From IMG/VR virus record IMGVR_UViG_2574180309_000001, positions 1 through 64,000 of that record: a stretch of 64,000 nt of DNA. One strand, given 5' to 3'. The stretch is from a virus (taxonomy: Duplodnaviria > Caudoviricetes). Each line of letters starts with the position of its first letter. The first letter of the stretch is position 1. Positions 2,818-58,545 of this stretch are shown in pieces. The notes under the pieces were generated by a model. The model was not told where the DNA came from. It saw nothing but the letters and a program-made list of their open reading frames with translations, and made no database searches. A program made the translations under genes and the position numbers.

Positions 2818-3265
2818 AATTTAATTCCTCCAAGATATATATAATGTAATATTTCTGCACAATCTTATCAAAATAAACATCTGTATATTGTTATATTGTG
2901 TCGAATAGGAATAAAAAAAGAGAGAGCTATAACTCTCAATGGGGAAATGATAAGAATTTACCGATGGATATTAGAGAGATATCTTCTATTTTTTACTAAT
3001 GTTGAATAATGGTTTTTATCAAATCTATCGGGAGATGTGGTTTTAATATGGCTAGGAAGGAGTGTGTCTCGAAAGGTGTACCTTTCGAAACGATATGAGA
3101 TGTGTCTTTTATACAGTTAAGAAGGATTTCAAAAAGGGAAATTATCTGAGGATGATATTATTTTAGAGAATTGATACTTTATAACATAATGTAAGTTTTG
3201 ATTAAAATGAATAAGGATATTTTTGAAAAATAAAAAACGTCCTTCAAAAGAAGAAACGTTTTTTA

Positions 3266-4585
3266 TTATTTTGCAAATGTATTACGATATTCATTAATAA
3301 AATGATTATTTGGTAATTTACTATTACCTTTGCCAAATAATTTTTCTCGATAGGTACCTTCTGTATATTGTGTTTTATAAAGACCACGTTTTTGTAATTC
3401 AGGAACTACTAAGTCAATAAAATCTTGAAAGGTGCCTGGGGATATATATTGTACCAAATTAAAACCATCAATGTCTGTTTCTTCAACTAAATATTGCATT
3501 TCATTAGCTATTTCTTTAGGCGTACCTATAAGTAGCTTAAACCATTTTCCATCTATTTTACTCAAATTCCCAATAATTTCTTTTACACTTAATGTACCTA
3601 TGTAATCATTAATATTGTATTGAGATAAATCATATCCACTTCCACCAGCATAGTGAGCTATATTTCCTTCAAGGCTCCAATATTTTTGGAAAGAATCGAA
3701 TTTTTCGATTGCTTCTTCATATGTTTTTCCAACAATTACACATATTCCTGCAAACAGTTTAATATTGTTAGGATTCCGACCGTATTTTTCAGCTTTTTCT
3801 CTAATGTCTTTTACAACATATTTTAATGTTTCCACATCTTTTCCGCCTAAAAATATGCCTTCTGCATGCTTAGAAGCAAATTCTCTTCCCCTTTCTGACA
3901 TTCCAGCTTGATAAAGAACAGGTGTACGTTGTGGAGAAGGTTCGCTTAAATGTGGTCCAGGTACATTGAAATATTTGCCAATATGATTAATTTGATGCAC
4001 TTTATTGGGATCTGTATATATTTTATTTTCTCTATCACGAATAACTGCATCATCTTCCCAACTAATTTCCCATAATTTATAACAAACTTCTAGAAACTCA
4101 TCAGCTAAATCATATTTTTCATCGTGATTAAGTTTAGTTTCTATGCCAAAGTTTTTTTCTGCACTAGATAAATGTGAAGTAACAATGTTCCAAGCCATTC
4201 GACCTTTTGTTAAGTGATCTAGTGTTGACATGCGTCTAGCATATCCATATGGATGCTCGTAAGAAGTTGAAAAAGTTACAGCGAACCCTAAATGTTTTGT
4301 TACATTGGCCATAGCTGATATAATCATCAATGGATCGTTAGCTGGAATTTGAACAGCTTCACGAACTGCAGTATCTTTATTCTGTTGATATGTATCATAT
4401 ACACCAACTACATCAGCTAGAAAAAGAGAATCAAACATCCCTTTTTCTAGTAATTGAGCGAGTTCTGTCCAATAATTTAAATCTGTGTAACGATGTCTTT
4501 GGTTATCTGGATGAGCCCAAAGCCCGTGAGAAATATGTCCTACACAATTCATTTCAAATGCATTCAAATAGATTTTTTTCTTCAT
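3266..4585 (-). CDS. Luciferase-like (LLM) flavin-dependent monooxygenase, NtaA/DszA/SnaA family
   Basis: LEKGMFDSLFLAD, TLDHLTKGRMAWNIVTS, PSPQRTPVLYQAGMSERGREFA motifs. Confidence 0.9.
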   Translation of the reverse strand: MKKKIYLNAFEMNCVGHISHGLWAHPDNQRHRYTDLNYWTELAQLLEKGMFDSLFLADVVGVYDTYQQNKDTAVREAVQIPANDPLMIISAMANVTKHLGFAVTFSTSYEHPYGYARRMSTLDHLTKGRMAWNIVTSHLSSAEKNFGIETKLNHDEKYDLADEFLEVCYKLWEISWEDDAVIRDRENKIYTDPNKVHQINHIGKYFNVPGPHLSEPSPQRTPVLYQAGMSERGREFASKHAEGIFLGGKDVETLKYVVKDIREKAEKYGRNPNNIKLFAGICVIVGKTYEEAIEKFDSFQKYWSLEGNIAHYAGGSGYDLSQYNINDYIGTLSVKEIIGNLSKIDGKWFKLLIGTPKEIANEMQYLVEETDIDGFNLVQYISPGTFQDFIDLVVPELQKRGLYKTQYTEGTYREKLFGKGNSKLPNNHFINEYRNTFAK

Positions 4586-4616: not shown

Positions 4617-5858
4617 TTAAGAAACTATTTTGTTTTCAAGTTGTTCATCTTGTAAATTTATAATTTTTTTATTTAACATCCAAAGATTTGAGACTATTAA
4701 TAAAATACCAGCTACCGTTAATACACTTTGGACACCAATGATATCACTCAATATACCAGCAAATAAAGCTCCTAATGGAATTGTTCCCCAAGTCATCATC
4801 ATCATACTGCCACTAATTTCTCCTCTTATGTGTGAAGGTAAGACTATTTGCTGAATTGTAACACGTGCAATACTTCCAATACTTCTTGAGATGAAGAATA
4901 AAATAGTTCCTACTACAAATATGATAATTCCAGGTTCCCCTTTAGCAAAACTTGCTAAAAGTAATCCGCAACTTGGTATTATTGGAGCGAAGACCATAAC
5001 TTTTATTACACCAAATTTATTAATTAACTTTGGTGCGAGAAAAGATCCAATTATTGCACCAATACCACTTAGTGACATTAATATTCCTGTTAGGGATGTA
5101 CTAAGATTTAGATCTTTTACTAAGAAAATTACTACAATTGCTGTATACATAGAGATAGCAAAATTTATAGTTCCAGTTGTAAATACTAATGTTCTGAGAA
5201 CAGTGTTTTTAAAAATATATTTTAAATTTTCTATACGTGTACTTTTTTTATTTACAACTTTTTTCTCTTGGATATTTTTGTTTTGTTTTTCTTTAGGACT
5301 TTTTATAGTTATTATGGTTATACAAGAGATAATTAGGCTTATGGAAATGCAGAGAAGTGTATATGTCTCTCCTAATATCCCTATACAAATTCCACCTAAT
5401 GCTGGTCCAATTAAGTTTGCACTTGATCTAGCAAATTGTATTAATCCATTTATGCTTGATAATTCTTTATTTGTATATATATCTGGCATCCATGTTGTCA
5501 TTGTAGTTTCAATTACTACTAAACATAAACTAAGTAATAGTATTATTATAAAGTAACTTTCTTTTGTTAAGTTTGCAGATAAAGTTAAATATGAAAATAA
5601 CCCAAATACAAGTGAATTAATTAGTAGGGTAGTAGTAATTATATACTGTCTATTCCATTTATCTGCAATTAATCCTGAAATATAACCGAATAATAAATAA
5701 CCCATTGATGCTAATGAAGCAGCAATTGCTATAGAAGAATTATTTAATGCTAATACTTTAATTCCAATTATAGGAATTAAAATCATTAATATTTCAGTAG
5801 AAATATACCTTATTGTTTCTTCAGTTCCAATTTGAATGTTTTTAATTTTATTTTGCAT
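4617..5858 (-). CDS. MFS exporter
   Basis: ~12 TM segments, GLIADKWNR motif A, IGPALGG. Confidence 0.9.
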   Translation of the reverse strand: MQNKIKNIQIGTEETIRYISTEILMILIPIIGIKVLALNNSSIAIAASLASMGYLLFGYISGLIADKWNRQYIITTTLLINSLVFGLFSYLTLSANLTKESYFIIILLLSLCLVVIETTMTTWMPDIYTNKELSSINGLIQFARSSANLIGPALGGICIGILGETYTLLCISISLIISCITIITIKSPKEKQNKNIQEKKVVNKKSTRIENLKYIFKNTVLRTLVFTTGTINFAISMYTAIVVIFLVKDLNLSTSLTGILMSLSGIGAIIGSFLAPKLINKFGVIKVMVFAPIIPSCGLLLASFAKGEPGIIIFVVGTILFFISRSIGSIARVTIQQIVLPSHIRGEISGSMMMMTWGTIPLGALFAGILSDIIGVQSVLTVAGILLIVSNLWMLNKKIINLQDEQLENKIVS

Positions 5859-6922
5859 TAGAATGCTAATTCCAATTTATTTTCTATATTATTTTCAGGA
5901 TGTAGTTTAGAAAAGAATTCATCAACATCTTTTATGGCTACATTTTTTTCAATATTGAATTTTTTTGTGATGGTATTTACTATTTCTTCTTTCGAATTTC
6001 CTTCGAAAGCAAGAGTGTAGAAAAGTACTCCTATTTCATCCAAAATGTGATATACATCTTTTTTCGAATTGTGCAGCATAGAAATTTCTTCCCAAAATCT
6101 ATAATGTCGTGCAATCCATGCAGGAGAATCCTTTTCTGCTTGTTTTAATAACTCATAAGGTTTATTAGCTTGATTTAAATATGATTTTATCGTTTCTCTA
6201 TTAAGTAATGAATCTATATAATCTGCTACTTCTTTACTTTGTATTTCTATATTCCAGCCTTTAATCTGTTGTGCTATTGGGGAAAACATTGCATCAGCTA
6301 AAGAAAAATCTCCGAATAAGAATTGTCCAAGCCAATTTTTTTTCTTTTTACGTTCTAAAGTCTGTTTAAGTAATTGTAAAGTTTCTTCTAATTGTTCTAA
6401 TGCATCTTCTGGTATTTCTTGTTTATCGACACCTCTAAATGAATTTGAATAGGACATTCCACTCATTAATGGTAATAAGTCTGCATGAATATGATTACTA
6501 AACACACGTATGTCATTTCTTTTTACTATATCGGTACTTAATAAAGTAGGAAATTCATTAAAGTTTTCTTCTAAATAATCTGATATAGCCAGACTGTCAC
6601 ATATTACTACATTTGTTTCATCATCTATTAAAATAGGAACCCTTGGTAAATGTTCCACTATACTTCCTTTTAATAGTTGTGTATTATCAATTTTTAATAA
6701 CTGGGTAAGCTGGCATCCGCAACCTGATGCTGGTTCTTTTGGTAAATCGTAATCATCTTTAGCGTTTATGGGTATTAATCCACTATCAGTGAATTTAATA
6801 GGCCAATCTAATCCTGCTATAATTTCTTGATAAGGTACTTTTTTTTCTTTTAAAATAATTGAAGCACGCATTGACCATGATGAAAATTGTTTATCTCCAA
6901 TAATTAATGTTAACATGTGCAT
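5858..6922 (-). CDS. Glutathione S-transferase-fold protein fused to a C-terminal PqqD/RRE-like domain
   Basis: FSSWSMR, RVPIL, DSLAISDYL and FLFGDFSLADAM GST motifs; C-terminal YHILDEIGVLFY...EEIVNTITKKFNI...KDVDEFFSKL is RRE-like. Confidence 0.8.
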   Translation of the reverse strand: MHMLTLIIGDKQFSSWSMRASIILKEKKVPYQEIIAGLDWPIKFTDSGLIPINAKDDYDLPKEPASGCGCQLTQLLKIDNTQLLKGSIVEHLPRVPILIDDETNVVICDSLAISDYLEENFNEFPTLLSTDIVKRNDIRVFSNHIHADLLPLMSGMSYSNSFRGVDKQEIPEDALEQLEETLQLLKQTLERKKKKNWLGQFLFGDFSLADAMFSPIAQQIKGWNIEIQSKEVADYIDSLLNRETIKSYLNQANKPYELLKQAEKDSPAWIARHYRFWEEISMLHNSKKDVYHILDEIGVLFYTLAFEGNSKEEIVNTITKKFNIEKNVAIKDVDEFFSKLHPENNIENKLELAF

Positions 6923-6935
6923 CCTCCTCTATATT

Positions 6936-8297
6936 TTATGCGGAACATCCTGATGTTTTTTCTGGTTTAGATTCAAAAAAGTGTGGTAAATGACATCCAC
7001 CTCGACAACTTTCTAATTGACTACAGCCAATACATGTTTGTCGTGGATTAAGAACATCTGATACTTTTTTAGTCATTGCACCCCATATGTTTTTAATACC
7101 ATCGGTAACAGCATCACCAAAGAAGACATTACTATGTGGACAATGTCTTAATTGACCAGTAAAGGATACACTTCCCCAAGTTAATCCGGCTTCACAATGA
7201 CCAGATAGTTGTCTTTTTCTTAATGGTAATGTAGGATCATCAATGTTTAGCGGCATATCTTCATTTGAAGTACACATTTTTTGACCACATGGCCATGCAA
7301 CAATTAAATCTAAATATTGTTTTTGTAAATCATCAATTTTTTGCATTAATGGAAGCATATTTTCTATGGGAACACCGTAGGCATCATCATTTTTTCCAGT
7401 CGGGACATACCTCATTACACTAAAATGTTTTGCTCCATTTTTATATGCATCTTTCATTACCTCAATTGCTCCATTAAAATTACTTTTTACTAAAGTTAAT
7501 TCAACTACAACTTCGATCTCTTCCTTTGCTAGTGTTTCGATAGCTGTGATTGCTTTTTGATAAGCCATTTTGTGGCCTGTTAATGCATTATGAACAGTTT
7601 TATCACCATGTAGAGAAATTAAAACTGTTCCTACGTTGTATTCTTTAAAGCGTTTAGCTAGTTCAATATCTAAAAAATGACCATTTGTAAAGACAGCTTG
7701 ATATAGACCAAGTTTCCCCCCATATGCTAGAATTTCTTCAATATCAGGATGTAATAATGTTTCACCACCGCTATATCGGACTGTAAAACATCCATTATCA
7801 TGGCATTCATCTAAAATTTTAAAAATCTTTTCCTTTGGAAGATGTTTTTGTTGTAATGATTTAATTTTTTTTCGGACATCATCATCAGTCAGATTAGGAT
7901 CGATTTTCCATACGTTATAACAGAAACCACAGTTCCAATTACATAGAGATGTTACTTCTATTTCTATACGCAAAGGAAATTCAAGTAACTGTTCATGCTT
8001 TTTTTCAATGTCCCATTCCCAAATATTTTCTTGATTTGTATTAATACTATATAGAAATTCTTTTAAATCATTTATTAATTCATTTTTAGTGACGTCATAT
8101 TCTTGTAAAATATAATTTGTAATGTAGTTAATATCATGATTTTGTTTTATTAGAGATACGACTAAAAGCCCTAAATCATTATCAATCCTATGTATAACAC
8201 CAGTTTTACTATCAAATAACATACCTACATCTTCTCTGAATTTTAAATTTTTAATTTTATCTATAAATGAATTTAATTCATTGGAACTTATATTCAT
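6936..8297 (-). CDS. Radical SAM/SPASM peptide maturase with N-terminal RRE
   Basis: CNWNCGFC, SGGE and TNG motifs; SPASM cysteines CEAG...RHC...CIGC...CRGGC; N-terminal ~85 aa is PqqD-like. Confidence 0.92.
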   Translation of the reverse strand: MNISSNELNSFIDKIKNLKFREDVGMLFDSKTGVIHRIDNDLGLLVVSLIKQNHDINYITNYILQEYDVTKNELINDLKEFLYSINTNQENIWEWDIEKKHEQLLEFPLRIEIEVTSLCNWNCGFCYNVWKIDPNLTDDDVRKKIKSLQQKHLPKEKIFKILDECHDNGCFTVRYSGGETLLHPDIEEILAYGGKLGLYQAVFTNGHFLDIELAKRFKEYNVGTVLISLHGDKTVHNALTGHKMAYQKAITAIETLAKEEIEVVVELTLVKSNFNGAIEVMKDAYKNGAKHFSVMRYVPTGKNDDAYGVPIENMLPLMQKIDDLQKQYLDLIVAWPCGQKMCTSNEDMPLNIDDPTLPLRKRQLSGHCEAGLTWGSVSFTGQLRHCPHSNVFFGDAVTDGIKNIWGAMTKKVSDVLNPRQTCIGCSQLESCRGGCHLPHFFESKPEKTSGCSA

Positions 8298-8326
8298 AAT
8301 GGTTCCCCCTCAAATTTGTATTCATC

Positions 8327-8358
8327 AAAAAGAGAGCAAGTTCCCCTGCCCTCCTTTT
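8327..8358 (-). terminator. Hairpin/attenuator between precursor and maturase
   Basis: Minus strand AAAAGGAGGGCAGG-GGAA-CTTGCTCTCTTTTT; the G-U pairs form only on the minus strand. Confidence 0.7.
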
Positions 8359-8366
8359 GTTTTTAA

Positions 8367-8435
8367 TTAGTTACATTGTAAAGATGGTGCTTTACCAGAT
8401 TTTACAGTTGGACGTTTGTATTCTTTTTTAGCCAT
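8367..8435 (-). CDS. Putative RiPP precursor peptide, 22 aa: MAKKEYKRPTVKSGKAPSLQCN
   Basis: Hand translation; RBS GGAGGGG; YxxPxV RRE-binding leader motif; first gene of the operon. Confidence 0.85.
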   Translation of the reverse strand: MAKKEYKRPTVKSGKAPSLQCN

Positions 8436-8522
8436 TATTTTCCCCTCCATTTCTCATTGTATGTATATATATAAATGATAAGGATTTTCATCCATATCAT
8501 CTATAAACAGAAAGTAAAAAGG

Positions 8523-9090
8523 TAAAAAACTGTAAAGTCTAAATAGACTGAAAATTAATCTGTGATTAATATACACTTTACCTTTAACTAAGTAAAGTAT
8601 TTTTGAAAAAAAATACTTTAAAGATAAAAAATTACATTTAAAAGTCTTAAAAAATTATATCCATATATAAATGAAAATGTTTCTCACTCAAATCATTTAT
8701 ACTCAAAGAATATAATTCACTACAGATAAAAACTGTTAAATCTAAATAGACTGACAATTCACAGTAATTAATATACACTTTATCTTTAACTAAGTAAAGT
8801 GTTTTTGAAAAAAATTACATTTAAAAGTCTTGAAAAAATTATATCCATATATAAATGAAAATGTTTCTCACTCAAATCATTTATACTCAAAGAATATAAT
8901 TCACTACAGATAAAAACTGTTAAATCTAAATAGACTGACAATTCACAGTAATTAATATACACTTTATCTTTAACTAAGTAAAGTGTTTTTGAAGAAAATT
9001 ACATTAAAAAGTCTTAAAAAAAATTATATCCATATATAAATGAAAATGTTTCTCAATTTAGTTGTTTATAATCAGAGGATATAATTCACT
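8523..9090. repeat. Three tandem copies of a ~184-bp unit upstream of the precursor
   Basis: Copies start at ~8523, 8727 and 8911; copy 1 has a ~20-bp insertion; internal IR ACACTTTA-N12-TAAAGTGT. Confidence 0.9.
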
Positions 9091-9198
9091 GTGAATAATA
9101 TCAAACCAATAATCCCATCTTTTCCAAAGTAGAACATCATGTCCGTATAAAAAGGTCATGACTAAGGAAAATTAATCTAATTATTAATTTTTTCTACA

Positions 9199-9314
9199 TA
9201 AAAAAGACACCCTAAGGTGCCTTCCTCCGACTTGAACCATCTTAATTTTAATAATATGTATTGGACTCCCATCCGAATATTATTTTACCATGTTAAGTAA
9301 TTTTATGCATTGAG
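9199..9314. repeat. ~100-bp intergenic repeat, copy 2
   Basis: Matches 1536-1640. Confidence 0.85.
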
Positions 9315-9415
9315 GGGTATCGCCACATCACCATCAAGCTAAGGTTTTTATTTTTTTATTAAATCTATTAAAATATTTATTAGTATTGGAAAAAATTTCT
9401 GGAGTGGATAAGAAT

Positions 9416-10222
9416 ATGGAGAAGATAGGAAATTGTAGATTATGTGGGATGGAAGGAATCCTTCAAGATAGTCATATAGTGCCAAAGTTTATAGGTAGAT
9501 GGATAAGAAAAACATCAGAAGCGGGAGATTTAAGGATTCCCTATAATCCTAATAAACCTGAATATGACCTGTTTAGTACACACCTCCTTTGTAAGAAATG
9601 TGAAGGTATCTTCAGTAAGTTTGAAACTACTTTTGCAAATAAGATATTTTATAAATACCAAGATAATGATAGAAAATTCGAATATGATGATTGGTTAATG
9701 AATTTTGTTATCTCATTAAGCTGGCGTATTGGAACTTTATATTTTGTTAATAATTCTTTTGATGAAACAAATAGCAAGCATGTGTTATTAAATGAGGCAT
9801 TGAACTTATGGGGAAGTTATTTACTTGGCGACAATACAAATTATGGTAGTTATAATCACCACTTATATTTTGTAGATGAAAGTAAGATTTCTGAAGATTT
9901 TCCACCCGGATATAAATATTATTTTAATAGGAGTGTTGATGGGCATGTAAGCTATTTACCTAATGGTGAAATGAATATTTATTGCATGTTACCGGGAATG
10001 TTGATTGTTTCAAATATTTCTCCTAAATCAATAAAGGGGTGGAGGGGAACAATTATAAATCGCTTTGGAACACTTCATAAATACAAACAATACACTCCCA
10101 TTAATATTGCAAATTACATGGTAGATCGCACTATAATTTCAAGCTATTCCCTTCTAAACGGCATTAGTGATCAGCAAATAGAAAAAATTAAAGTAAAAGC
10201 TTCAAAGAAAAAGGAAAGCTAG
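9416..10222 (+). CDS. HNH-like nuclease-domain protein, possibly defence
   Basis: CRLC...SHIVP...LLCKKCE..FS pattern. Confidence 0.6.
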   Translation: MEKIGNCRLCGMEGILQDSHIVPKFIGRWIRKTSEAGDLRIPYNPNKPEYDLFSTHLLCKKCEGIFSKFETTFANKIFYKYQDNDRKFEYDDWLMNFVISLSWRIGTLYFVNNSFDETNSKHVLLNEALNLWGSYLLGDNTNYGSYNHHLYFVDESKISEDFPPGYKYYFNRSVDGHVSYLPNGEMNIYCMLPGMLIVSNISPKSIKGWRGTIINRFGTLHKYKQYTPINIANYMVDRTIISSYSLLNGISDQQIEKIKVKASKKKES

Positions 10223-10600
10223 CTACTATGTTATAACTAGATTTTATTTTGCTTCATGTAAGTGTATTAATATATAACTAGGATAAAGCCGTAGCCCTCG
10301 ATGAAAATAATGGTGAACTCACCGTTGGATATTAGAGAAATTCCCCTTTATTTCTCATTAAAAATTTCATTTATGTTGTACAAATATTGAATAATGTTTT
10401 TTATCAGATATATAGGGGGATATGGTTGTAATATGGGAAGAAGTGTGTTTCAAAAGGTTACTTAGGAAATGGATTTTATTAAGCTTTTTGATTTCAAATA
10501 GACGGGACCTCCTGAGTTTTTTAAAATCATTAAATGAAAATTGGATTGGGTATCGTGTATGATATAGTAAGAGCTATTTTTACATAAAGGGGGATATTTT

Positions 10601-11497: not shown

Positions 11498-12685
11498 TTA
11501 TATCCAGTAAAAAATATTTGAGTTTCCCATTCTATCTAATAAAGAAATTGCTATATCATGCTTTTCTTCATAACGATATTTCCATAATAATAATTTAATT
11601 TCCGTTAAATCAATGTATTGTTTTAAGACTTTTAAAACATCATATAACTTAAGGACATATTTGTTTGCTCTCATAGGTGTAAGACCTAATTCGGAAATTA
11701 AATGCTGGTTAATTTTTAAGGAACTTGATGTTCTGAAACGATTAACCAATTCGAAATGTGCACACGTATTACGTAATTCTCTAATGATTTGCAAAGAATT
11801 TAAAAATTTCTCTTTGTCTTTTGGTTTTAGATTGAAATCCCTTAAAATAGCATCAAAAGTACGTTTCTTTAGTCCATAAAGTAAAAGAATTAAATCATTA
11901 AACATTAGGGTTTTAATAACAACCCAAAATGGAGGATTGTTATATTCATTTATAAATGGAAACCTTGTTTTGCATTCATCGATATAATTTAACCCATATA
12001 TTCTTTCATCCTTAATGGTTATTGGTGTAGTAATAGATGTTCCTGATGAAGGGGCAAGCGAATGAATATGTGCTACTAATGATGCTTGTTTCGAATTAAA
12101 AAAGGTGCACTTACCTTGGACTGTATTTATTGATGTAGATCCAAATCTGCCCGTAAATGTTCCTTCAAGTATAGTTTGCCCACGGGCGGGATTATAAGTC
12201 ACATCTCCAGAAAAATCTCCACTAAAAATGCCTTCGAAATAAGCTGATTTTTTAAATAATTTATGTTTCTTAAAATGTTTAGTATATTCTTTAGGTCCAT
12301 CTGTTCTTTTGGGAAGAGAATAACTAGTAAGTTCAATGTATTTATTATTATCACATAAAGTAGAGCAATGATTTTTACTAAAATGATAAGATATAGAAGT
12401 CTTTAATTTGTTTTCGAGTTCCGAAATTTTTTGGAATATTAAACTTGAAAGTTGATTATCAAGTTTATAAAGACTTAAAAAATCATCAAAGAAAACATTA
12501 GTATAATATTTAGATGTACCTTTAGGGTCATCTAATAAAAGGGTTTCAAAACCATTTATTAAATTAAAATAATTTTTTTCATGAAGATGTAATTTTGCAT
12601 TTTTTAAATCTTGAATAGCTAAATTCCGATCTCTTAATAAACGTAATTGATCCACGACAGCTTTAAACTCTTTATCTGAAGGCAT
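11498..12685 (-). CDS. Abi_2/AbiD/AbiF-family HEPN RNase
   Basis: LRDRNL.I, NYFNLINGF, ELENKLK, PPFWV and LRNTCAH (RxxxxH). Confidence 0.85.
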   Translation of the reverse strand: MPSDKEFKAVVDQLRLLRDRNLAIQDLKNAKLHLHEKNYFNLINGFETLLLDDPKGTSKYYTNVFFDDFLSLYKLDNQLSSLIFQKISELENKLKTSISYHFSKNHCSTLCDNNKYIELTSYSLPKRTDGPKEYTKHFKKHKLFKKSAYFEGIFSGDFSGDVTYNPARGQTILEGTFTGRFGSTSINTVQGKCTFFNSKQASLVAHIHSLAPSSGTSITTPITIKDERIYGLNYIDECKTRFPFINEYNNPPFWVVIKTLMFNDLILLLYGLKKRTFDAILRDFNLKPKDKEKFLNSLQIIRELRNTCAHFELVNRFRTSSSLKINQHLISELGLTPMRANKYVLKLYDVLKVLKQYIDLTEIKLLLWKYRYEEKHDIAISLLDRMGNSNIFYWI

Positions 12686-13218
12686 CCCTAAAAATCTCCC
12701 CTTATTTTTATGTAACCACATAATAAAAAGTAATAGTTAGAGACAATTTTAGTGAAATAAATATGTTAGTAACCTTTTGAATAACATATTTTCCTATTTG
12801 GATAAAATTTTATGTATTATCAAAAAAGTGTCTTTTATTACTTAGTAGTTAATAATTTATATATATATATTATAATAAAATCGGAAGAAATTTAAGTATA
12901 TTTTAAATAGACATAAATAACCGCACGATTAAGATATATAATTTTTTTGAAAAGTATATTTAAAAATTTGAATGTTATTTTAGATGGTATGTATTTTCAA
13001 TTAGGTCTAGAATATGATTTTTTAGTAATCAATATAGAATTCGACTTGCATATATAGTTGTAATCACATTTAGTTTGGTGTTCAAAAGAAAGTGAATTTT
13101 ATTGCTTATTCCTTTGAAATGTAAGATTTTATGAACTCATGTAATGAGTCCGATTACAATAATTTGGTCATATTGTGTTGAATAAAAATAAAAAAGAGAA
13201 CCATAGCTCTTTTTTTTA

Positions 13219-14836: not shown

Positions 14837-16717
14837 ATGTATATATCTGATGTGAAAATTTTGAATTACAGAAGCTTTTCAGAGTTTAATGTAAGCTTGA
14901 ATGAAGGCTTATCTATAATCATTGGAGAAAATAATGCGGGGAAATCCAATTTTTTAGAGGCGTTGAGTCTTATCTTTAATAGTAATTACTCATTACGAAA
15001 AAGAATATTACAACAAGAGGATTTTTGGAGTGGACTCAATATTCAAGGGAACTGGCCAGAGATTACAATTGAGGCAACTTTAAAAGGAATCGAAACAGAA
15101 AACGATCTTGCTATTACAAGTAGATGGCTAACAAGAAATCCAGGAGAGGCAAAACTTACCTACAAGTACAAACCAAAGGCAAATATTTCGGTTTCAGCTC
15201 CTCTTGATGCTACCCCTATTAGCAAAATTCAGCTTCCCCTTCATGAGTATGAGTGGATAATTTATGGTGGGGAGCGTGAAACATTAGACACCTTTGATTT
15301 TAATATGCTATCCAAGTTTGGAGTCGAGTATGTAGGGGCTCTTAGAGATGCAAATGCTGAATTAAAAAAGTCCTCTGGTCAATTACAGAGAATCCTAAAA
15401 AATTTCGATCTTGGAGAAGAGGAGCTTCATAAGATTTCAGGAAAAATTGATGAACTTAATGAGCAAATTATGCAAGGTAGAGAAATTCAGAAGGTACAGA
15501 GTGATATCAATGAACATCTTCGAAAAATTACAGGGACTATGAGACAGCAAGTAAAAATCCAAATGGGAGAAAGTGACTATGACGCTTTATTAAAAGATTT
15601 AAAGGTCCTAATTGGTTCATATGAAGACAGAGTACATTCTGTTGATATGAATGGCCTTGGTTATAATAATTTGCTGTATATTAGCCTTTTACTTACTCAA
15701 TATACAGCCATTAAGGAAAAGCGAAATCAAAATCATGACTATGTGTTTCCACTTTTAATTGTTGAGGAACCGGAAGCCCATCTGCATAGTCATTTACAAA
15801 AGTTCTTAGCTAATTATTTCTTTAATCAGAAAGTCGTAGGCCAGGTTATTATGACAACCCATTCTTCACACGTTAGTTCGCATGCAGAACTGGATAATTT
15901 AGTAGTGTTTTATAAGGGGAACAATAGGACATTATCTAAACGTATTGGAACAATTTTTGATACCAATAAAAAAGAGGAAAGAGATTATAAACGGTATTTA
16001 GAAAGATGGTTAGATGCTACCAAATCTGATATTTTTTTTGGTAGAAGGGTCTTATTAGTAGAAGGAATTGCAGAACGTCTATTAATACCGAAATTTTTCT
16101 CTATGCTACAAAATCGATACGCGGGAGAAGATAAAACATTAGAAAGTGAAGGGATATCTATTATTTCAGTAGATGGTGTAGCATTTAGACCATTTTTACA
16201 GTTATTTGGATCAAAGGGATTAGATATGAAGTGTGCTGTTTTGACTGATAGTGATCCAGAATCTGTTCCAGTAATAGACATGCATGGGGATGAAGTGATT
16301 GGAAGTGACGATAAGGTTGTAAAAGAGGCAGTTTATCCTACGAAATTTGGTGATTTTCCAATCTGTTCAAGAACAACTGGTTTAATTAATGATTTTAGCA
16401 CATCCTCTAATATTTATATATCTAGTAATCTTAAAACATTTGAATATGATTTGATGATGGAGAATAATGCATCTTTCTTTCGTGAGTTAATTCAAACATA
16501 CGATATTGGAACAAAAACAGAAAGGGAAAGAATTGTTACTTTGGACGGGCACGAATTTGCAAAAGAAGCCTATGAAGTTATTTCAAAGGAGAAGGGTCAA
16601 TTCTCCCAGTTCATATTAGATGAATTGAATAAAGGGAAAGTTCTTCATATTCCAGCATATATCAAGCAGGTATTTAGTTTTCTTACGAATGAAGAGGAGG
16701 TAAGAAGTGATGGTTGA
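14837..16717 (+). CDS. gajA: OLD-family ABC ATPase/TOPRIM nuclease (Gabija GajA-like)
   Basis: GENNAGKS, EEPEAHLH, TTHS, VEGIAE and DSD motifs. Confidence 0.85.
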   Translation: MYISDVKILNYRSFSEFNVSLNEGLSIIIGENNAGKSNFLEALSLIFNSNYSLRKRILQQEDFWSGLNIQGNWPEITIEATLKGIETENDLAITSRWLTRNPGEAKLTYKYKPKANISVSAPLDATPISKIQLPLHEYEWIIYGGERETLDTFDFNMLSKFGVEYVGALRDANAELKKSSGQLQRILKNFDLGEEELHKISGKIDELNEQIMQGREIQKVQSDINEHLRKITGTMRQQVKIQMGESDYDALLKDLKVLIGSYEDRVHSVDMNGLGYNNLLYISLLLTQYTAIKEKRNQNHDYVFPLLIVEEPEAHLHSHLQKFLANYFFNQKVVGQVIMTTHSSHVSSHAELDNLVVFYKGNNRTLSKRIGTIFDTNKKEERDYKRYLERWLDATKSDIFFGRRVLLVEGIAERLLIPKFFSMLQNRYAGEDKTLESEGISIISVDGVAFRPFLQLFGSKGLDMKCAVLTDSDPESVPVIDMHGDEVIGSDDKVVKEAVYPTKFGDFPICSRTTGLINDFSTSSNIYISSNLKTFEYDLMMENNASFFRELIQTYDIGTKTERERIVTLDGHEFAKEAYEVISKEKGQFSQFILDELNKGKVLHIPAYIKQVFSFLTNEEEVRSDG

Positions 16718-18503
16718 TAATGATGATTTCCGGAGAAGTATAGCATGTGCTCCTCATACTGATTCAATTACTGTACAAGCTGGACCTGGAAGTGGTAAAA
16801 CGACGTTATTGATAGAGCGGTTGAAATATATAATTGAAAATCGCATAAATGCTTTGTCCGGGATTGCTTGTATTACTTATACCAATGCGGCTAAAGAAGA
16901 GATCATGATGCGACTACAAAATGAAGGAGTGCAGCTACCTAATGAGCTGTTTATAGGAACAATCCATTCATTTTTATTGGAGCATGTGATTAAACCCTAT
17001 TCACACTTGAAGCATAAGGAAGGAATACCATATAAACTTGCTTCTGTGGGCTTTGCTAGGGGATATAAAGATTATATTGCAAATATGTTAGGACGCCCCC
17101 ATTATCATATTAATGAGAGTATATTTAAAGCGTTCGAGAGCCTGGGCCGTGATGAAAAGGGAAATCCTTATTGCTATAGAAATAAGATTTCTTCTTCAGA
17201 TGCATTGACATGGAAGAGCTTTATTAAAAATAAAGGATACATAGATCAACAAGATGTGATTTATCTTTCTTACCTTATTTTAAAAAAATATGGTCATATT
17301 CGAAATGCATTTAGTTCTCGCTTTAAATATATTCTTGTAGATGAGTATCAAGATGTTACTTATTATCAAGAGAAGTTATTTTCTTTGCTAGAACATTCTT
17401 CGTTCTTTTGCGTCGGGGATACAAATCAATCAATTTATAGCTTTACAGGAGCAAAGCCAGAAATATTTCAAGCAAAGTGGAACAATGAGAGTTACAGAAA
17501 CTATATGTTAACCAACAATTTTCGGAGTACGCAACACATTGTCCAGTTTGCTAATTATAAAACAGAAATTGAGCAAACTGGAGCTGGTAAAAATGCTACA
17601 AGAAAGCAAAAAGTGATATTTATAAAAGATATTAAAGAGGCTTCAGAGGCTATTCAATTGTTTCAAAGTATTTGTACAGATATAGAATGTGAGGAACAAA
17701 AGAAGCCATTTATGATTCTAGCTAGACGGAATGATTATGTGAAAAATATAAATAGTCTTTTAAAAAAACAAGAAGTGGAAGTAAGCCCTTTTTTTAAGAA
17801 ATTAGCAAAAGAGCATTATCGTCGCTTTCAAATTTTGCAAAATCTCATATTGGCTATCTCATATAAGCGGAGAAACGAATTTGACAAAGCTGTTGAAAGA
17901 ATGAGTGAAGCCTTCAGCTATTTATTTTTTAATGAACACCCTAATTATATTGCATTAGTTGAAATTGGATATAGTATGTTTATGTGGAAGAAATTGCAGA
18001 TCTTTACGCTTCAGTTTTTAGATAACCTGGTATTAACAGAAACATCGGTGGAAGAGCTGTTTGAAGTACTGAAAAAATTTCTGATGGAAGAATCAAAAAA
18101 ACTGTATGGTAAATCTATAGGGAAAAAACTAAATATGCTTAATTACAAATGGAAGAATCAAGTTAAAGCATCAAAGAATACCATGTTATCACATCTCATA
18201 GAGCAAGTAGAGCTACAAGGGCACTTTTCTGAAAGTGAAGGCTCTATTTTAAACATTCATGATGCAAAAGGTCAAGAAGCGGAATGTGTATTGGTAATGG
18301 CTGAATACGAATCTCAGCTTAAGGAGTGGCTTGGAAAAAATGGAGAAATAGAAGAAGCACGTGTAGGTTATGTGGCGTTTTCTAGAGCTAGAAAGTTATT
18401 ATGTGTATGGGCTCCTTCCATTCAAGAAAGTAACTACATGCATTTACAACAACATGTTCAATTTGTAGATAAGGTCTATGCCGCTAAAATGGAAAGTGTT
18501 TAA
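16707..18503 (+). CDS. gajB: UvrD-like helicase (Gabija GajB-like)
   Basis: AGPGSGKT, DEYQD, GDTNQSIY, NFRS, HDAKGQE, YVAFSRA; overlaps the OLD gene. Confidence 0.85.
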   Translation: MMVDNDDFRRSIACAPHTDSITVQAGPGSGKTTLLIERLKYIIENRINALSGIACITYTNAAKEEIMMRLQNEGVQLPNELFIGTIHSFLLEHVIKPYSHLKHKEGIPYKLASVGFARGYKDYIANMLGRPHYHINESIFKAFESLGRDEKGNPYCYRNKISSSDALTWKSFIKNKGYIDQQDVIYLSYLILKKYGHIRNAFSSRFKYILVDEYQDVTYYQEKLFSLLEHSSFFCVGDTNQSIYSFTGAKPEIFQAKWNNESYRNYMLTNNFRSTQHIVQFANYKTEIEQTGAGKNATRKQKVIFIKDIKEASEAIQLFQSICTDIECEEQKKPFMILARRNDYVKNINSLLKKQEVEVSPFFKKLAKEHYRRFQILQNLILAISYKRRNEFDKAVERMSEAFSYLFFNEHPNYIALVEIGYSMFMWKKLQIFTLQFLDNLVLTETSVEELFEVLKKFLMEESKKLYGKSIGKKLNMLNYKWKNQVKASKNTMLSHLIEQVELQGHFSESEGSILNIHDAKGQEAECVLVMAEYESQLKEWLGKNGEIEEARVGYVAFSRARKLLCVWAPSIQESNYMHLQQHVQFVDKVYAAKMESV

Positions 18504-55990: not shown

Positions 55991-56344
55991 TTAGTTTATA
56001 TTCACTAATTCATCAAACTTAAATTCTGTTTTGAGTCCAAATGCATCTCTACAATACACAGTTTTTAGCATCGGTTCGATATGTAATACATTTATATAAA
56101 TGTCTTGTACCATTCCGTCACGATAGTATGAGATATGTATTTCTTCTTTGTTTTGTAGCGATTGAATAAGACCAATTTGCAGTTGTTCTTTCATATCTTC
56201 AGTAACAATTGGTTTCGGTACTTTATTCAAATCGCTAATTATTTCTCGTATTACTTCGTATTGTTCCGGCATACTGGCAAAAGGCTGCCACTTGACCATG
56301 CCCCTCCCACGTAATTTAGGTGTTCCCCAGCTATGATTTTCCAT
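55991..56344 (-). CDS. YolD-like protein
   Basis: RGMVKWQPFASMPEQ. Confidence 0.85.
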   Translation of the reverse strand: MENHSWGTPKLRGRGMVKWQPFASMPEQYEVIREIISDLNKVPKPIVTEDMKEQLQIGLIQSLQNKEEIHISYYRDGMVQDIYINVLHIEPMLKTVYCRDAFGLKTEFKFDELVNIN

Positions 56345-56383
56345 GATGATCCCTCAATTCGTGTAATTTATGCTTATTATACA

Positions 56384-56397
56384 CGAACGTGCGTTCT
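56384..56397. promoter_or_regulatory. LexA (SOS) box
   Basis: CGAAC-GTGC-GTTCT upstream of the YolD-like gene. Confidence 0.8.
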
Positions 56398-56399
56398 TT

Positions 56400-56639
56400 T
56401 TAAACTGCTTTTTCTGCTTTGTTTTTCCCCTCTAATTCCTTATTTAAAAATTCTATTCGTCGTTGGATAAATTCAATTTCACTTCGGCGAGCTGCATTAT
56501 ATCCTTTGAAATGCCCTTTTGCGTAACCATCAGCAGCTTTTATTTCATTTTCAAAATCATTAATGCTATCCGTTAAGAATTGAATGCGTTCATTCATTAT
56601 TTCTATGAAGTATTCAACTGACTTTCTTTCCATACCCAT
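56400..56639 (-). CDS. Hypothetical coiled-coil protein
   Basis: RBS AAGGAG. Confidence 0.6.
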   Translation of the reverse strand: MGMERKSVEYFIEIMNERIQFLTDSINDFENEIKAADGYAKGHFKGYNAARRSEIEFIQRRIEFLNKELEGKNKAEKAV

Positions 56640-56673
56640 ACAGCTCCTTTTTTTACTAAATTACAATATCGTT

Positions 56674-56907
56674 TTACATATCCCAAAAATCTCGTTCGTC
56701 TATATTCCTACCTAACTCTTTTAATCCCTTAACAATTTGAATTATCGTCGAAAACTTCGGTCTATATTTTTTATCATTACACACTTTAGAAATAGTGGCT
56801 GTACTTAGTTTCGATGTTCTTTCTAATTCAATTTGAGCTATTCCATTTCGATCAAGATAGCTACCAAATTTTGTACGCTTTTTCCCCAGTCCGAACACGT
56901 TTATCAC
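56674..56907 (-). CDS. XRE HTH regulator
   Basis: FGLGKKRTKFG...STATISKVC; divergent from the FtsK operon. Confidence 0.8.
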   Translation of the reverse strand: MINVFGLGKKRTKFGSYLDRNGIAQIELERTSKLSTATISKVCNDKKYRPKFSTIIQIVKGLKELGRNIDERDFWDM

Positions 56908-56991
56908 CTCATCAACATCTTGACCTATTTCTTACTTTTTTAAACTAAGGCAAAAAAATAAGAAATTGTCCAAGCTGTACACCATATGATT

Positions 56992-57111
56992 TATCAAGGT
57001 CGCTACCAAAGTAGCTACCACAGTAAATAGCTAAATTGCTATCAAGGTAACTAGTATTTGCACTATCAAAGTAGCTATCAAGTTAGCTATCAAAATAACA
57101 CTACCAAGGTA
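56992..57111. repeat. Iteron-like CTAYCAA repeats
   Basis: About eight degenerate copies of (G)CTAYCAA(R)GTA. Confidence 0.75.
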
Positions 57112-57173
57112 TTAGGCCGATAAACCCACGCAATAAAAGGATTCTAAATTCTGTTTATAAAGGGGGGTTTTAT

Positions 57174-57368
57174 ATGTTAACTACATTTATTTCATTAGGA
57201 GTTTTAGGAGCAACAACAATTGGTGGAGCTATATTAGAGACACACCTTGTAAAGAATGATCACGTTGCAGCAGCTAAACTTTTAAGCGATGGAATGTATC
57301 ACGGAATGAGAATAGGTGGAATTTGTTTTATCGGTTATGTATTTATCAAAATTTTAATCATGTTCTAG
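57174..57368 (+). CDS. Small membrane protein
   Basis: Two hydrophobic segments; first gene of the FtsK operon. Confidence 0.65.
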   Translation: MLTTFISLGVLGATTIGGAILETHLVKNDHVAAAKLLSDGMYHGMRIGGICFIGYVFIKILIMF

Positions 57369-57378
57369 GAGGTGTCAC

Positions 57379-58545
57379 ATGGGACTCATCAAAGATTGGC
57401 TCCATAAGCAAAATTTAAAGAATCAACTTATAGAGGTATTTAGGAAAGCAGGTTTATATGTGGACCATCAAACGAGAGGTGGTAAAGTACCCATTTATCC
57501 AAAGATACATTCCATTTCTTCCACACAAGAAAATGTTCGATATGTATTTACCATTCCGAATGGTTTGGATCCGAAGAATATTGAAAAGAAATGGTTTTGC
57601 TTTCAACAAATATTAGGACGTAATGTAGCGATTGAAGGTGATATTAAGCGATTTGTTCTTAATGTATTCCATTCAGATGCTGGACTACAAACATACAAGT
57701 ACAGTTATAAGAAATGGCAGCCATTATTAAAACAACATCGTCTTCCTGTTGTGGTAGGACGTGACCAATATGGAAACATGATTGCGTATGACATGGTTGA
57801 TTCAAATACACCTCATTTACTCATAGCAGGAGAGACAGGTAGCGGTAAAAGTAGTATGGTACGCGTTGTTCTGTCCACACTCATTCAACACATGTCTCCT
57901 GATAAGTTGCATTTGTACCTGGGCGACTTGAAGAATTCTGAGTTTCATTTCTTGAGAAGAGTAAAGCACGTAAAAGAGGTTTGCATGGAAGAAATCGAAA
58001 TGAAGATTATGCTACAGAAAGTGTGGAAGGAAATACGCGAACGTAGAAAACTGATGGAAGAGTATGAAGTGGATCATATAGATGAATACAACAAATTAAA
58101 TCCCAATAATGAAAAACCGTATATCTTACTTGCTATTGATGAAGTAGCAATGCTTCAGGATGAAAAGGAATGTATGTCTACAGTTGAAAAAATATCGGCA
58201 GTCGGTAGGGCGCTAGGAGTCTTCCTTATGCTTAGCATGCAACGTCCCGACGCAAAAGTATTAGACGGAAAGCTAAAGTTGAATATGACCGTGAGAATGG
58301 GCTTTAAATGTGATAGTACAATTAACAGTAATATCATGGGTACACCTGGTTCAGAAAACTTGGAGCAATCGGGCCAAATGATATTAAAATTGAACGGATT
58401 AAAGAAAGTGCAAGCTCCTTATTTAGAATTAAGTAAAGCGAGACAAATTGTTGAACCTTATCGCATTCCGAAAGAGGATATGAAGTCCCAGATTCCTCCG
58501 CAAGAAGAAAATCAATTGTTTGGGGTGTTAGATTATGAAGAGTAG
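57379..58545 (+). CDS. FtsK/SpoIIIE-family ATPase
   Basis: PHLLIAGETGSGKS, IDE, GRALG, QRPD. Confidence 0.92.
   Translation: MGLIKDWLHKQNLKNQLIEVFRKAGLYVDHQTRGGKVPIYPKIHSISSTQENVRYVFTIPNGLDPKNIEKKWFCFQQILGRNVAIEGDIKRFVLNVFHSDAGLQTYKYSYKKWQPLLKQHRLPVVVGRDQYGNMIAYDMVDSNTPHLLIAGETGSGKSSMVRVVLSTLIQHMSPDKLHLYLGDLKNSEFHFLRRVKHVKEVCMEEIEMKIMLQKVWKEIRERRKLMEEYEVDHIDEYNKLNPNNEKPYILLAIDEVAMLQDEKECMSTVEKISAVGRALGVFLMLSMQRPDAKVLDGKLKLNMTVRMGFKCDSTINSNIMGTPGSENLEQSGQMILKLNGLKKVQAPYLELSKARQIVEPYRIPKEDMKSQIPPQEENQLFGVLDYEE

Follow-up and report, generated by a model that had tools for sequence, protein, structure and literature searches.

A glutathione S-transferase-fold protein fused to a peptide recognition domain is a probable leader-guided tailoring enzyme of a small radical-SAM peptide cassette

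We analysed the 64,000 nucleotides (nt) found at positions 1 to 64,000 of the IMG/VR virus record IMGVR_UViG_2574180309_000001 (Caudoviricetes), hereafter called the window, and focused on an open reading frame (ORF) that codes for a glutathione S-transferase (GST) fold followed by a recognition element (RRE) for peptides that are ribosomally synthesized and modified post-translationally (RiPPs). In the window this protein, GST-RRE, belongs to a cassette with the gene order precursor, radical S-adenosylmethionine (rSAM) maturase, GST-RRE, major facilitator superfamily (MFS) transporter and LadA-type flavin mononucleotide (FMN)-dependent monooxygenase (Table 1). We estimate at roughly 85% the probability that GST-RRE is a leader-guided, catalytic tailoring enzyme of the cassette. 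By its gene content, the cassette itself is predicted to be an RRE-dependent rSAM system of the RiPP type outside the curated NCBIfam rSAM families: a short precursor gene adjoins the gene of an rSAM protein that harbours both a CxxxCxxC motif and an RRE.

The first ATG of the GST-RRE ORF directly abuts a GGAGG motif, and a second ATG, at position 6916, lies 6 nt past it. Homologues of GST-RRE and its ESM Atlas record begin at the second Met. Because the spacing from the ribosome-binding site and these starts agree, translation probably begins at 6916, which yields a protein of 352 amino acids (aa). Residues are nevertheless numbered according to the 354-aa ORF throughout. A previous reading of this DNA from its sequence only had noted the GST motifs SSWSMR, VPIL, DS and SLAD, and we located each of them in the translation, at residues 14-19, 95-98, 109-110 and 207-210, respectively.

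Pfam assigned the protein to GST_N_2 (37.8 bits, cut-off 25) and GST_N_3 (36.8 bits, cut-off 22), and its residues 287-341 to PqqD (PF05402; 29.1 bits, cut-off 23.4), with the GST_C families remaining below their cut-offs. NCBIfam has no specific model for it. The best models in that collection were those of generic GSTs and lasso PqqD chaperones, far below cut-off (22 vs 80 bits for the lasso_PqqD models), and the beta-etherase and maleylacetoacetate isomerase models gave weak matches. We then modelled the whole protein with AlphaFold2, using as input an alignment of 25 members of the GST-RRE family (alignment A1), which gave a predicted local distance difference test (pLDDT) value of 90.4 and a predicted template modelling (TM) score of 0.89. 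In Foldseek searches of this model against the PDB, the top matches were all GSTs, including 4jbb (E-value 2.8e-10) and Escherichia coli YfcF (3bby, TM-score 0.88 for the target). VIA-align, which is independent of Foldseek, placed 3bby_A first, with a Z-score of 21.6 and a root-mean-square deviation of 1.9 Å over 188 residues. The architecture of cytosolic GSTs, a thioredoxin-like N-domain and an all-helical C-domain, was recovered in the fold searches, and helix alpha-1 starts from residue 15 in the model. The N-terminal part of GST-RRE has a GST fold, and it is a divergent member of the superfamily with YfcF as its nearest structural relative.

The C-terminal domain was also modelled alone, from an alignment of seven sequences (A2) restricted to its 89 residues, with a pLDDT of 89.4. 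In the full-length model it is composed of three strands (275-277, 282-285 and 290-293) followed by three helices (296-306, 311-322 and 326-340). The best six Foldseek matches of this domain are lasso-peptide B1 proteins crystallised with their leaders (5v1u, 5v1v, 6jx3; TM-scores 0.61-0.74), followed by PqqD (5sxy, 3g2b) and by two maturases that carry an RRE, CteB and SuiB. In addition, the A1 profile aligned with TbiB1 over positions 274-336 (E-value 2.5e-4). The predicted structure and these matches identify the C-terminal domain as an RRE that most resembles the lasso B1 proteins. The RRE-like domain proposed in the sequence-only reading is therefore borne out by the PqqD signature above cut-off, the B1-type fold matches and the profile match to TbiB1. 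The structure predictions and Foldseek searches that it had called for point to GSTs for the N-terminal part and to B1 proteins, then PqqD, for the C-terminal part.

The same reading had noticed a GCGC motif in an inserted segment. This motif is found at residues 67-70, its Cys-Gly-Cys codons being at nt 6713-6721, and the segment is indeed an insertion. An alignment of six family members and eight stand-alone relatives of ~210-240 aa (A3; the relatives are a subset of P0029-P0044) showed that a stretch of ~40-50 residues, located after strand beta-2 and before the V-P loop, is missing in 8/8 of the stand-alone proteins, as is the RRE in its entirety. The insertion region, which we call the lid, carries the motifs D39-W40-P41 and E63-P-A-S-G-C68-G-C70, and it was modelled as a beta-hairpin, a less confident loop and two short helices. 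In GSTs, the alpha-2 region that the lid replaces forms one wall of the glutathione-binding site (G site).

Several residues of the GST domain are strictly conserved in the family. In A1, R19, E26, D39, W40, P41, C68, R94, V95, P96, D100, D109, Y116, H144, S157 and S161 are present in 25/25 sequences, C70 in 24/25 and D148 in 23/25, and S14, S15 and W16 in 24/24 of the sequences that cover those positions. The Ser of the 'DS' motif (position 110) is found in only 3 of the 25, being replaced by Val, Ile or Ala in the others, whereas all eight stand-alone relatives have it. We also aligned the query with one representative per full-length 50%-identity cluster of the family (21 clusters), down to 23% identity (A4, 22 sequences). 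Six residues are invariant in this wider set: S14, W16, C68, P96, L98 and R275. C70 is missing in two of its sequences (P0125 and P0138), and H144 is not invariant. In profile alignments made with A1, S14 lines up with the SPY/SAF-motif Ser of YfcF-class structures, a position at the start of helix alpha-1 that we take to be the catalytic Ser site of Ser-type GSTs. Two landmarks of the GST fold, the Ser at the N-terminus of alpha-1 and the Pro loop before beta-3, are therefore retained as S14 and P96 in 22/22 sequences. Because these landmarks are invariant and an additional invariant Cys, C68, is found in the lid, the conservation pattern argues for an enzyme rather than an inert scaffold. 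With alpha-2 replaced and the Ser of 'DS' mostly lost, we infer that the G site of GST-RRE has been remodelled.

The gene next to that of GST-RRE codes for an rSAM maturase (Pfam Radical_SAM, E-value 5.8e-21). Its residues 40-82 match PqqD at an E-value of 8.4e-4, below the Pfam cut-off, and this N-terminal domain, a paralogue of the RRE of GST-RRE, shares 30% identity with it (E-value 9.5e-7). Its nearest relatives of known structure are SkfB (1.8e-9) and SuiB (2.8e-8), and no curated NCBIfam model reached its cut-off on this protein. SPASM (PF13186) was not among the Pfam domains reported for the window protein; it is precomputed for its homologue P0056. NCBIfam models of SPASM families align to the window protein up to ~aa 435, below their cut-offs. 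The probable start of GST-RRE lies 19 nt past the stop codon of the rSAM gene, and its own stop codon overlaps the start of the MFS gene at positions 5856-5860. The MFS transporter presumably exports the product of the cassette. As a separate observation, searches with the rSAM sequence returned 75 relatives at an E-value ≤1e-20, many of them from Nocardia (44-50% identity).

To compare cassettes, we used the window and nine other loci for which DNA was available (Table 1). The gene immediately upstream of that of GST-RRE codes for the rSAM enzyme in 10/10 loci (window, L001, L002, L061-L065, L114 and L115), which belong to two phyla, and the MFS gene is directly downstream of it in 9/9 assessable loci, the contig L064 ending too early. 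For 16 further pairs of GST-RRE and rSAM matches, the sizes of the longest contigs agree, and the pair from Nocardioides has consecutive locus tags, which suggests that these genes are also co-located.

The precursor of the window contains the leader motif Y-K-R-P-T-V and ends with Q-C-N. A homologous precursor is encoded in each of the nine loci, including the window, that span the region upstream of the rSAM gene; L062 is cut there. All nine precursors end with Q-C-N followed by the stop codon, and all nine harbour a Y-x-[KR]-P-x-V motif with a Ser two residues past the Val. The distance from the leader Tyr to the C-terminus is exactly 17 residues in 9/9 cases. The clostridial precursors MYTKPEVISYEVKSQQCN and MYTKPEVESYEVKTVQCN keep both the QCN end and this spacing, and their enzymes are 35-36% identical to the query; the L061 precursor has a GTG start. 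In a script-based search of the six frames of the window, the sequence 'QCN-stop' occurs only once. The Y-x-x-P-x-V motif resembles the YxxPxL motif of lasso leaders, and the B1 proteins of known structure bind YxxP leaders. An invariant QCN at a fixed distance of 17 residues fits the delivery of the peptide's own Cys to an active site, as far as can be judged from the sequences.

The GST-RRE family is small. Of 3245 candidates in a word-indexed search, 44 proteins reached an E-value ≤1e-3. The fusion family accounts for 28 of these, with 23 covering ≥94% of the query and five being partial or covering less of it; the other 16 are stand-alone GSTs with 23-28% identity. An exhaustive profile search of 1.84 billion representatives returned 2195 sequences at ≤1e-3, 542 at ≤1e-10 and 23 at ≤1e-30. 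The best 23 correspond to 21 full-length proteins (329-373 aa) and two fragments, after which the scores fall from 153 to 122 bits and stand-alone GSTs aligned in two stretches appear. The exhaustive search thus yielded only 21 full-length clusters at 50% identity. Named members are from Priestia, Rummeliibacillus, Staphylococcus pseudintermedius, S. equorum, Clostridium tagluense, Streptomyces, Nocardioides and Geobacillus. The GST-RRE cassette is rare, yet it is spread over at least two phyla.

How GST-RRE might act on the precursor can be proposed in some detail. We see it as an even bet that the RRE holds the leader and brings the glutathione-like C-terminal tripeptide of the precursor to the remodelled G site, for thiol chemistry without glutathione. 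The RRE would clamp the Y-x-x-P-x-V motif, and the fixed 17-residue spacing would serve as a ruler that sets the C-terminal X-Cys-X-COO- tripeptide, which resembles gamma-Glu-Cys-Gly, into the G site. Ser14 would stabilise the peptide thiolate, and Cys68, usually in a CxC pair with Cys70, would join the thiol chemistry on Cys21, either an S-conjugation to a second substrate or a thiol-disulfide exchange. CxC pairs are known to be redox-active and to mimic disulfide isomerases. This step might take place before or after that of the rSAM enzyme, free glutathione would not be needed, and the MFS pump would export the product.

A number of points weigh against this proposal. The placement of the precursor Cys in the G site is a prediction, and of the whole protein the lid is modelled with the lowest confidence (pLDDT 67-71 for aa 51-70). 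D109 is conserved in 25/25 sequences of A1, and part of a site for a small thiol could therefore persist. The Foldseek E-values of the RRE are weak, between 6e-3 and 2e-2 with none ≤0.001; such values are common for domains of ~90 residues. SkfB forms a thioether, and an rSAM enzyme acting likewise would use up the only Cys of the precursor. Lastly, homologues of the rSAM protein with 33-45% identity are found in Proteobacteria (Zoogloea, Azorhizobium, Azospirillum), as well as in one cyanobacterium, and Proteobacteria such as these make glutathione.

An alternative is a more conventional transferase or lyase guided by the RRE, whose G site would bind a small thiol (bacillithiol, mycothiol, cysteine, coenzyme A, or glutathione where available) that is added to, or removed from, an electrophilic intermediate made by the rSAM enzyme on the precursor. 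The intact GST fold with its canonical landmarks (S14, V95-P96 and D109, the last in 25/25 sequences of A1) would suit such a function, the nearest relatives of known structure bind glutathione (4jbb and 4isd, with glutathione bound), and the weak matches to the beta-etherase and maleylacetoacetate isomerase models point in the same direction. We nevertheless consider it unlikely, as the gamma-Glu-binding Ser is lost in 22 of the 25 sequences of A1, the alpha-2 wall is replaced, and the lineages in which the family occurs (Bacillaceae, Staphylococcus, Clostridium, Streptomyces and Nocardioides) differ in their dedicated small thiols or have none. Genome searches also speak against it. Neither GshA nor a GshF-type ligase was detected in two carrier genomes, those of Geobacillus icigianus (L001) and Priestia megaterium (L002), with E. 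coli as a positive control for GshA. Both genomes encode BshC above cut-off, with Bacillus subtilis as the positive control. The sequence-only reading had placed the host in a lineage that generally lacks glutathione and uses bacillithiol, and the gene content supports this for these two species, which are related carriers and not the window's own host. Bacillithiol S-transferases have the DinB/YfiT fold, a four-helix bundle; the GST fold found with Foldseek and VIA-align rules out that GST-RRE is a transferase of the DinB type.

If the GST domain were inert, GST-RRE might instead be a non-catalytic chaperone or scaffold that presents the precursor to the rSAM enzyme or stabilises the latter, in the way SspA, Ure2p and eEF1B-gamma use the GST fold. 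Some members of the family are named 'PqqD family peptide modification chaperone' by NCBI, and the non-enzymatic GST-fold proteins SspA, Ure2p, MglA and GDAP1 are among the structural matches. However, the rSAM enzyme already has an RRE of its own, and the invariant S14, W16, P96 and C68 are located at the catalytic landmarks and in the lid rather than spread over the surface, which makes this hypothesis quite improbable in our view. Even less credit can be given to the possibility that GST-RRE, instead of acting on the peptide thiol, assists the rSAM enzyme as its redox partner or sulfur donor, in which case the CxC motif together with H144 and D148 would bind a metal or an iron-sulfur cluster. 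The conservation of these four residues in A1 and the constant pairing with an iron-sulfur enzyme are in its favour, but C70 and H144 are not invariant in the wider alignment A4, and the presence of an RRE implies direct work on the peptide. It is hardly conceivable that GST-RRE serves in detoxification and adjoins a RiPP operon to which it is unrelated: apart from the GST annotation given by some sources, everything argues otherwise, namely the fusion to an RRE, the overlap with the MFS gene, the short distance from the rSAM gene and the gene order kept in 10/10 loci of two phyla. Leader-guided catalysis with the precursor Cys as the thiol remains our preferred reading. It agrees with the suggestion of the sequence-only reading that the G site may activate the Cys in QCN rather than glutathione, an interpretation that our results support in part.

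Comparisons with described systems underline what is particular to GST-RRE. YfcF and the YfcF-like GSTs (3bby, 4jbb, 4mp4, 4isd) share with it the two-domain GST fold, the N-terminal Ser aligned with S14 and the Pro loop. In contrast, they are only 16-21% identical to it, lack the lid insertion, the CxC motif and the RRE, bind free glutathione and are encoded by stand-alone genes outside peptide operons. The proteins nearest in sequence to its GST part are stand-alone GSTs of Proteobacteria and Bdellovibrio with a 'YSSWSMRAW' motif (P0029-P0044), with 23-28% identity by BLASTP and 25-31% in A3. They have in common with GST-RRE the motifs SSWS-x-R, VP, D-S and FLFGD-FSxAD as well as Y235, but they are devoid of the insertion and the RRE and keep the Ser of 'DS' (8/8). 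We know of no function for them.

The C-terminal domain shares the RRE fold with the lasso B1 proteins (TbiB1, 5v1u/5v1v; 6jx3) and with PqqD. Unlike it, the B1 proteins are discrete small proteins that work with a B2 protease and a C cyclase. The cassette is not a lasso peptide system, as it is composed of precursor, rSAM, GST-RRE and MFS genes, sometimes with that of a LadA-type monooxygenase, and both the B2 protease and the C lasso cyclase are missing. It has more in common with the systems of SkfB, SuiB, CteB and the sactipeptides, pyrroloquinoline quinone (PQQ) and mycofactocin, which also combine a short precursor with an exporter and an rSAM enzyme whose N-terminus is an RRE. As here, only a few C-terminal residues of the substrate are conserved in the PQQ and mycofactocin systems. 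In contrast with all of these, two RREs are found here in a single cassette, and to our knowledge none of these systems includes a GST-fold enzyme. More generally, we know of no characterised GST-fold enzyme that performs leader-guided peptide tailoring.

Fusions of an RRE with a glutathione S-transferase are listed as 'not present in known classes' in the RRE-Finder paper of 2020, a bioinformatic mention that assigns no function (PMC7470986). Those fusions have the same architecture as GST-RRE and may belong to the present family. The proposal of a new type of peptide-tailoring enzyme, made in the sequence-only reading, thus stands insofar as the enzyme is uncharacterised, but the fusion as such had been flagged before (PMC7470986). 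Our literature searches for a characterised GST-RRE enzyme, whose coverage of subscription journals was limited, found the listing in the RRE-Finder paper but no functional study.

The last gene of the cassette in the window, coding for a LadA-type monooxygenase, deserves separate consideration. Its product matches TIGR03860 with 520 bits and aligns over aa 1-436 with the LadA structure 3b9n ('Alkane monooxygenase') at an E-value of 9.8e-251; it is a close ortholog of LadA. The next-best relatives of known structure are a dimethyl-sulfide monooxygenase, a dehalogenase, riboflavin lyase and DszA. LadA has been described as a hydroxylase of long-chain alkanes, and its closest relatives of known structure act on organosulfur compounds by cleavage or oxidation. 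A LadA-type gene adjoins the cassette or is found near it in 5/9 assessable loci, in two arrangements (Table 1). One of these loci is on pLW1071, the plasmid from which LadA was described; there, 590 bp separate the LadA-type gene from the rSAM gene, and the precursor gene lies in this interval. These observations suggest a link between LadA and the cassette, be it a functional one within Bacillaceae or joint carriage on mobile DNA. The adjacency in two different arrangements weakens the idea that the monooxygenase gene is unrelated cargo. A literature search for papers linking LadA with radical SAM genes found none.

Table 1. Features of the cassette in the window, and the other loci used for comparison with the placement of their LadA-type genes (IS, insertion sequence)
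Locus	Feature	Position	Strand	Description
Window	LadA-type FMN-dependent monooxygenase	3266..4585	-	439 aa; possible fifth cassette gene; after the MFS gene, 31-nt gap
Window	MFS efflux transporter	4617..5858	-	413 aa; Pfam MFS_1, E-value 7e-40
Window	GST-fold/RRE fusion ORF (GST-RRE)	5858..6922	-	354 aa; stop overlaps MFS start (TAATG)
Window	RRE	5861..6127	-	aa 266-354; PqqD-like winged helix
Window	Family-specific insertion	6653..6802	-	~aa 41-90; replaces the alpha-2 region of the GST N-domain
Window	rSAM maturase	6936..8297	-	453 aa; CNWNCGFC motif; Cys-rich C-terminus; N-terminal PqqD-like RRE
Window	RNA hairpin	8326..8359	-	15-bp stem; between the precursor and rSAM genes
Window	Precursor gene	8367..8435	-	22 aa, MAKKEYKRPTVKSGKAPSLQCN; GGAGG 7-8 nt upstream of the ATG at 8435
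L001, Geobacillus icigianus	Split LadA ortholog			77-79% identity; on the same contig, ~7 kb upstream, beyond IS genes
L002, Priestia megaterium	No adjoining LadA-type gene			None in the genome at E-value ≤1e-30
L061, metagenome contig	No LadA-type gene at the locus
L062, metagenome contig	LadA-type gene	3047-4387		After the MFS gene, 8-nt gap
L063, metagenome contig	LadA-type gene	7264-8568		After the MFS gene, 4-nt overlap
L064, metagenome contig
L065, metagenome contig	No LadA-type gene at the locus
L114, G. thermodenitrificans NG80-2 plasmid pLW1071	LadA-type gene	9269-10591 (plasmid 56268-57590)		Divergently oriented; located upstream of the precursor gene
L115, Clostridium tagluense plasmid pCM008-C	No LadA-type gene at the locus

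Two features surround the precursor gene. The hairpin that separates it from the rSAM gene has a minimum free energy of -23.4 kcal/mol (z -5.5), and none of 200 shuffled sequences was equally stable. A simple terminator scan did not call it, and it may act as an attenuator or stabilise the transcript. Upstream of the precursor gene, positions 8453..9090 are occupied by 184-nt tandem repeats, with 2.5 near-identical copies (95% matches, score 826) and a diverged proximal copy, which exclude the precursor ORF. An Rfam search of this upstream region and of the repeats found no credible family (best E-value 0.48).

The complete IMG/VR virus record is 72,866 bases long and rated 100% complete. A siphovirus-like prophage block spans positions ~19500-62100 of the window, with genes for a phage regulator, a large terminase, a portal protein, a tape measure protein, an FtsK/SpoIIIE-like protein and an endolysin-like protein. 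The cassette is ~11 kb to the left of the first phage-like gene that we tested and may represent host or island DNA outside the prophage. The cassette is flanked by defence genes: an AbiD-like gene at 11498..12721 on the minus strand (E-value 4.8e-28), and a Gabija pair at 14837..18503 on the plus strand (GajA, 1.2e-165; GajB, 4.3e-81).

An element of ~150-175 nt at ~9188-9364 has matches in 252 Bacillus plasmid records (82-95% identity among the matches listed), most of them from the B. cereus group, and also in two B. cereus phages. It is often present in several copies per record, mostly in unannotated DNA, and is probably a dispersed repeat of the B. cereus group. Its presence suggests, from sequence similarity, that the host of the window belongs to that group. 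A megablast search of the cassette against phages matched only this short repeat element. In G. icigianus, two transposase genes (3102-4144 and 8383-9609 of L001) flank the cassette, the plasmid pLW1071 is conjugative, and on pCM008-C the cassette is near a BhlA/UviB holin-like gene. The cassette is mobile, since in other organisms it is carried by a conjugative plasmid, by another plasmid, or beside IS genes.

RiPP pathways are a main source of new enzyme chemistry, and the cassette, with its four to five genes and its 22-residue substrate, is small enough to be directly testable. A bolder extension of the proposed mechanism, which we hold to be doubtful, is that the Gln-Cys-Asn end of the precursor is a tethered, ribosomally encoded stand-in for glutathione that serves the GST domain in organisms that make none, and that in the Bacillaceae versions of the cassette the LadA-type monooxygenase is a pathway tailoring enzyme acting on the peptide sulfur. 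In that case GST-RRE would be the first GST-fold enzyme to use a RiPP precursor as its thiol substrate, delivered by a fused RRE, and the genomic context of LadA would suggest that its native role is not alkane oxidation. The link to LadA would also change how the genomic setting of this well-known alkane hydroxylase is seen. Should the idea of a tethered glutathione hold, it would show how the GST fold can be re-used where glutathione is absent.

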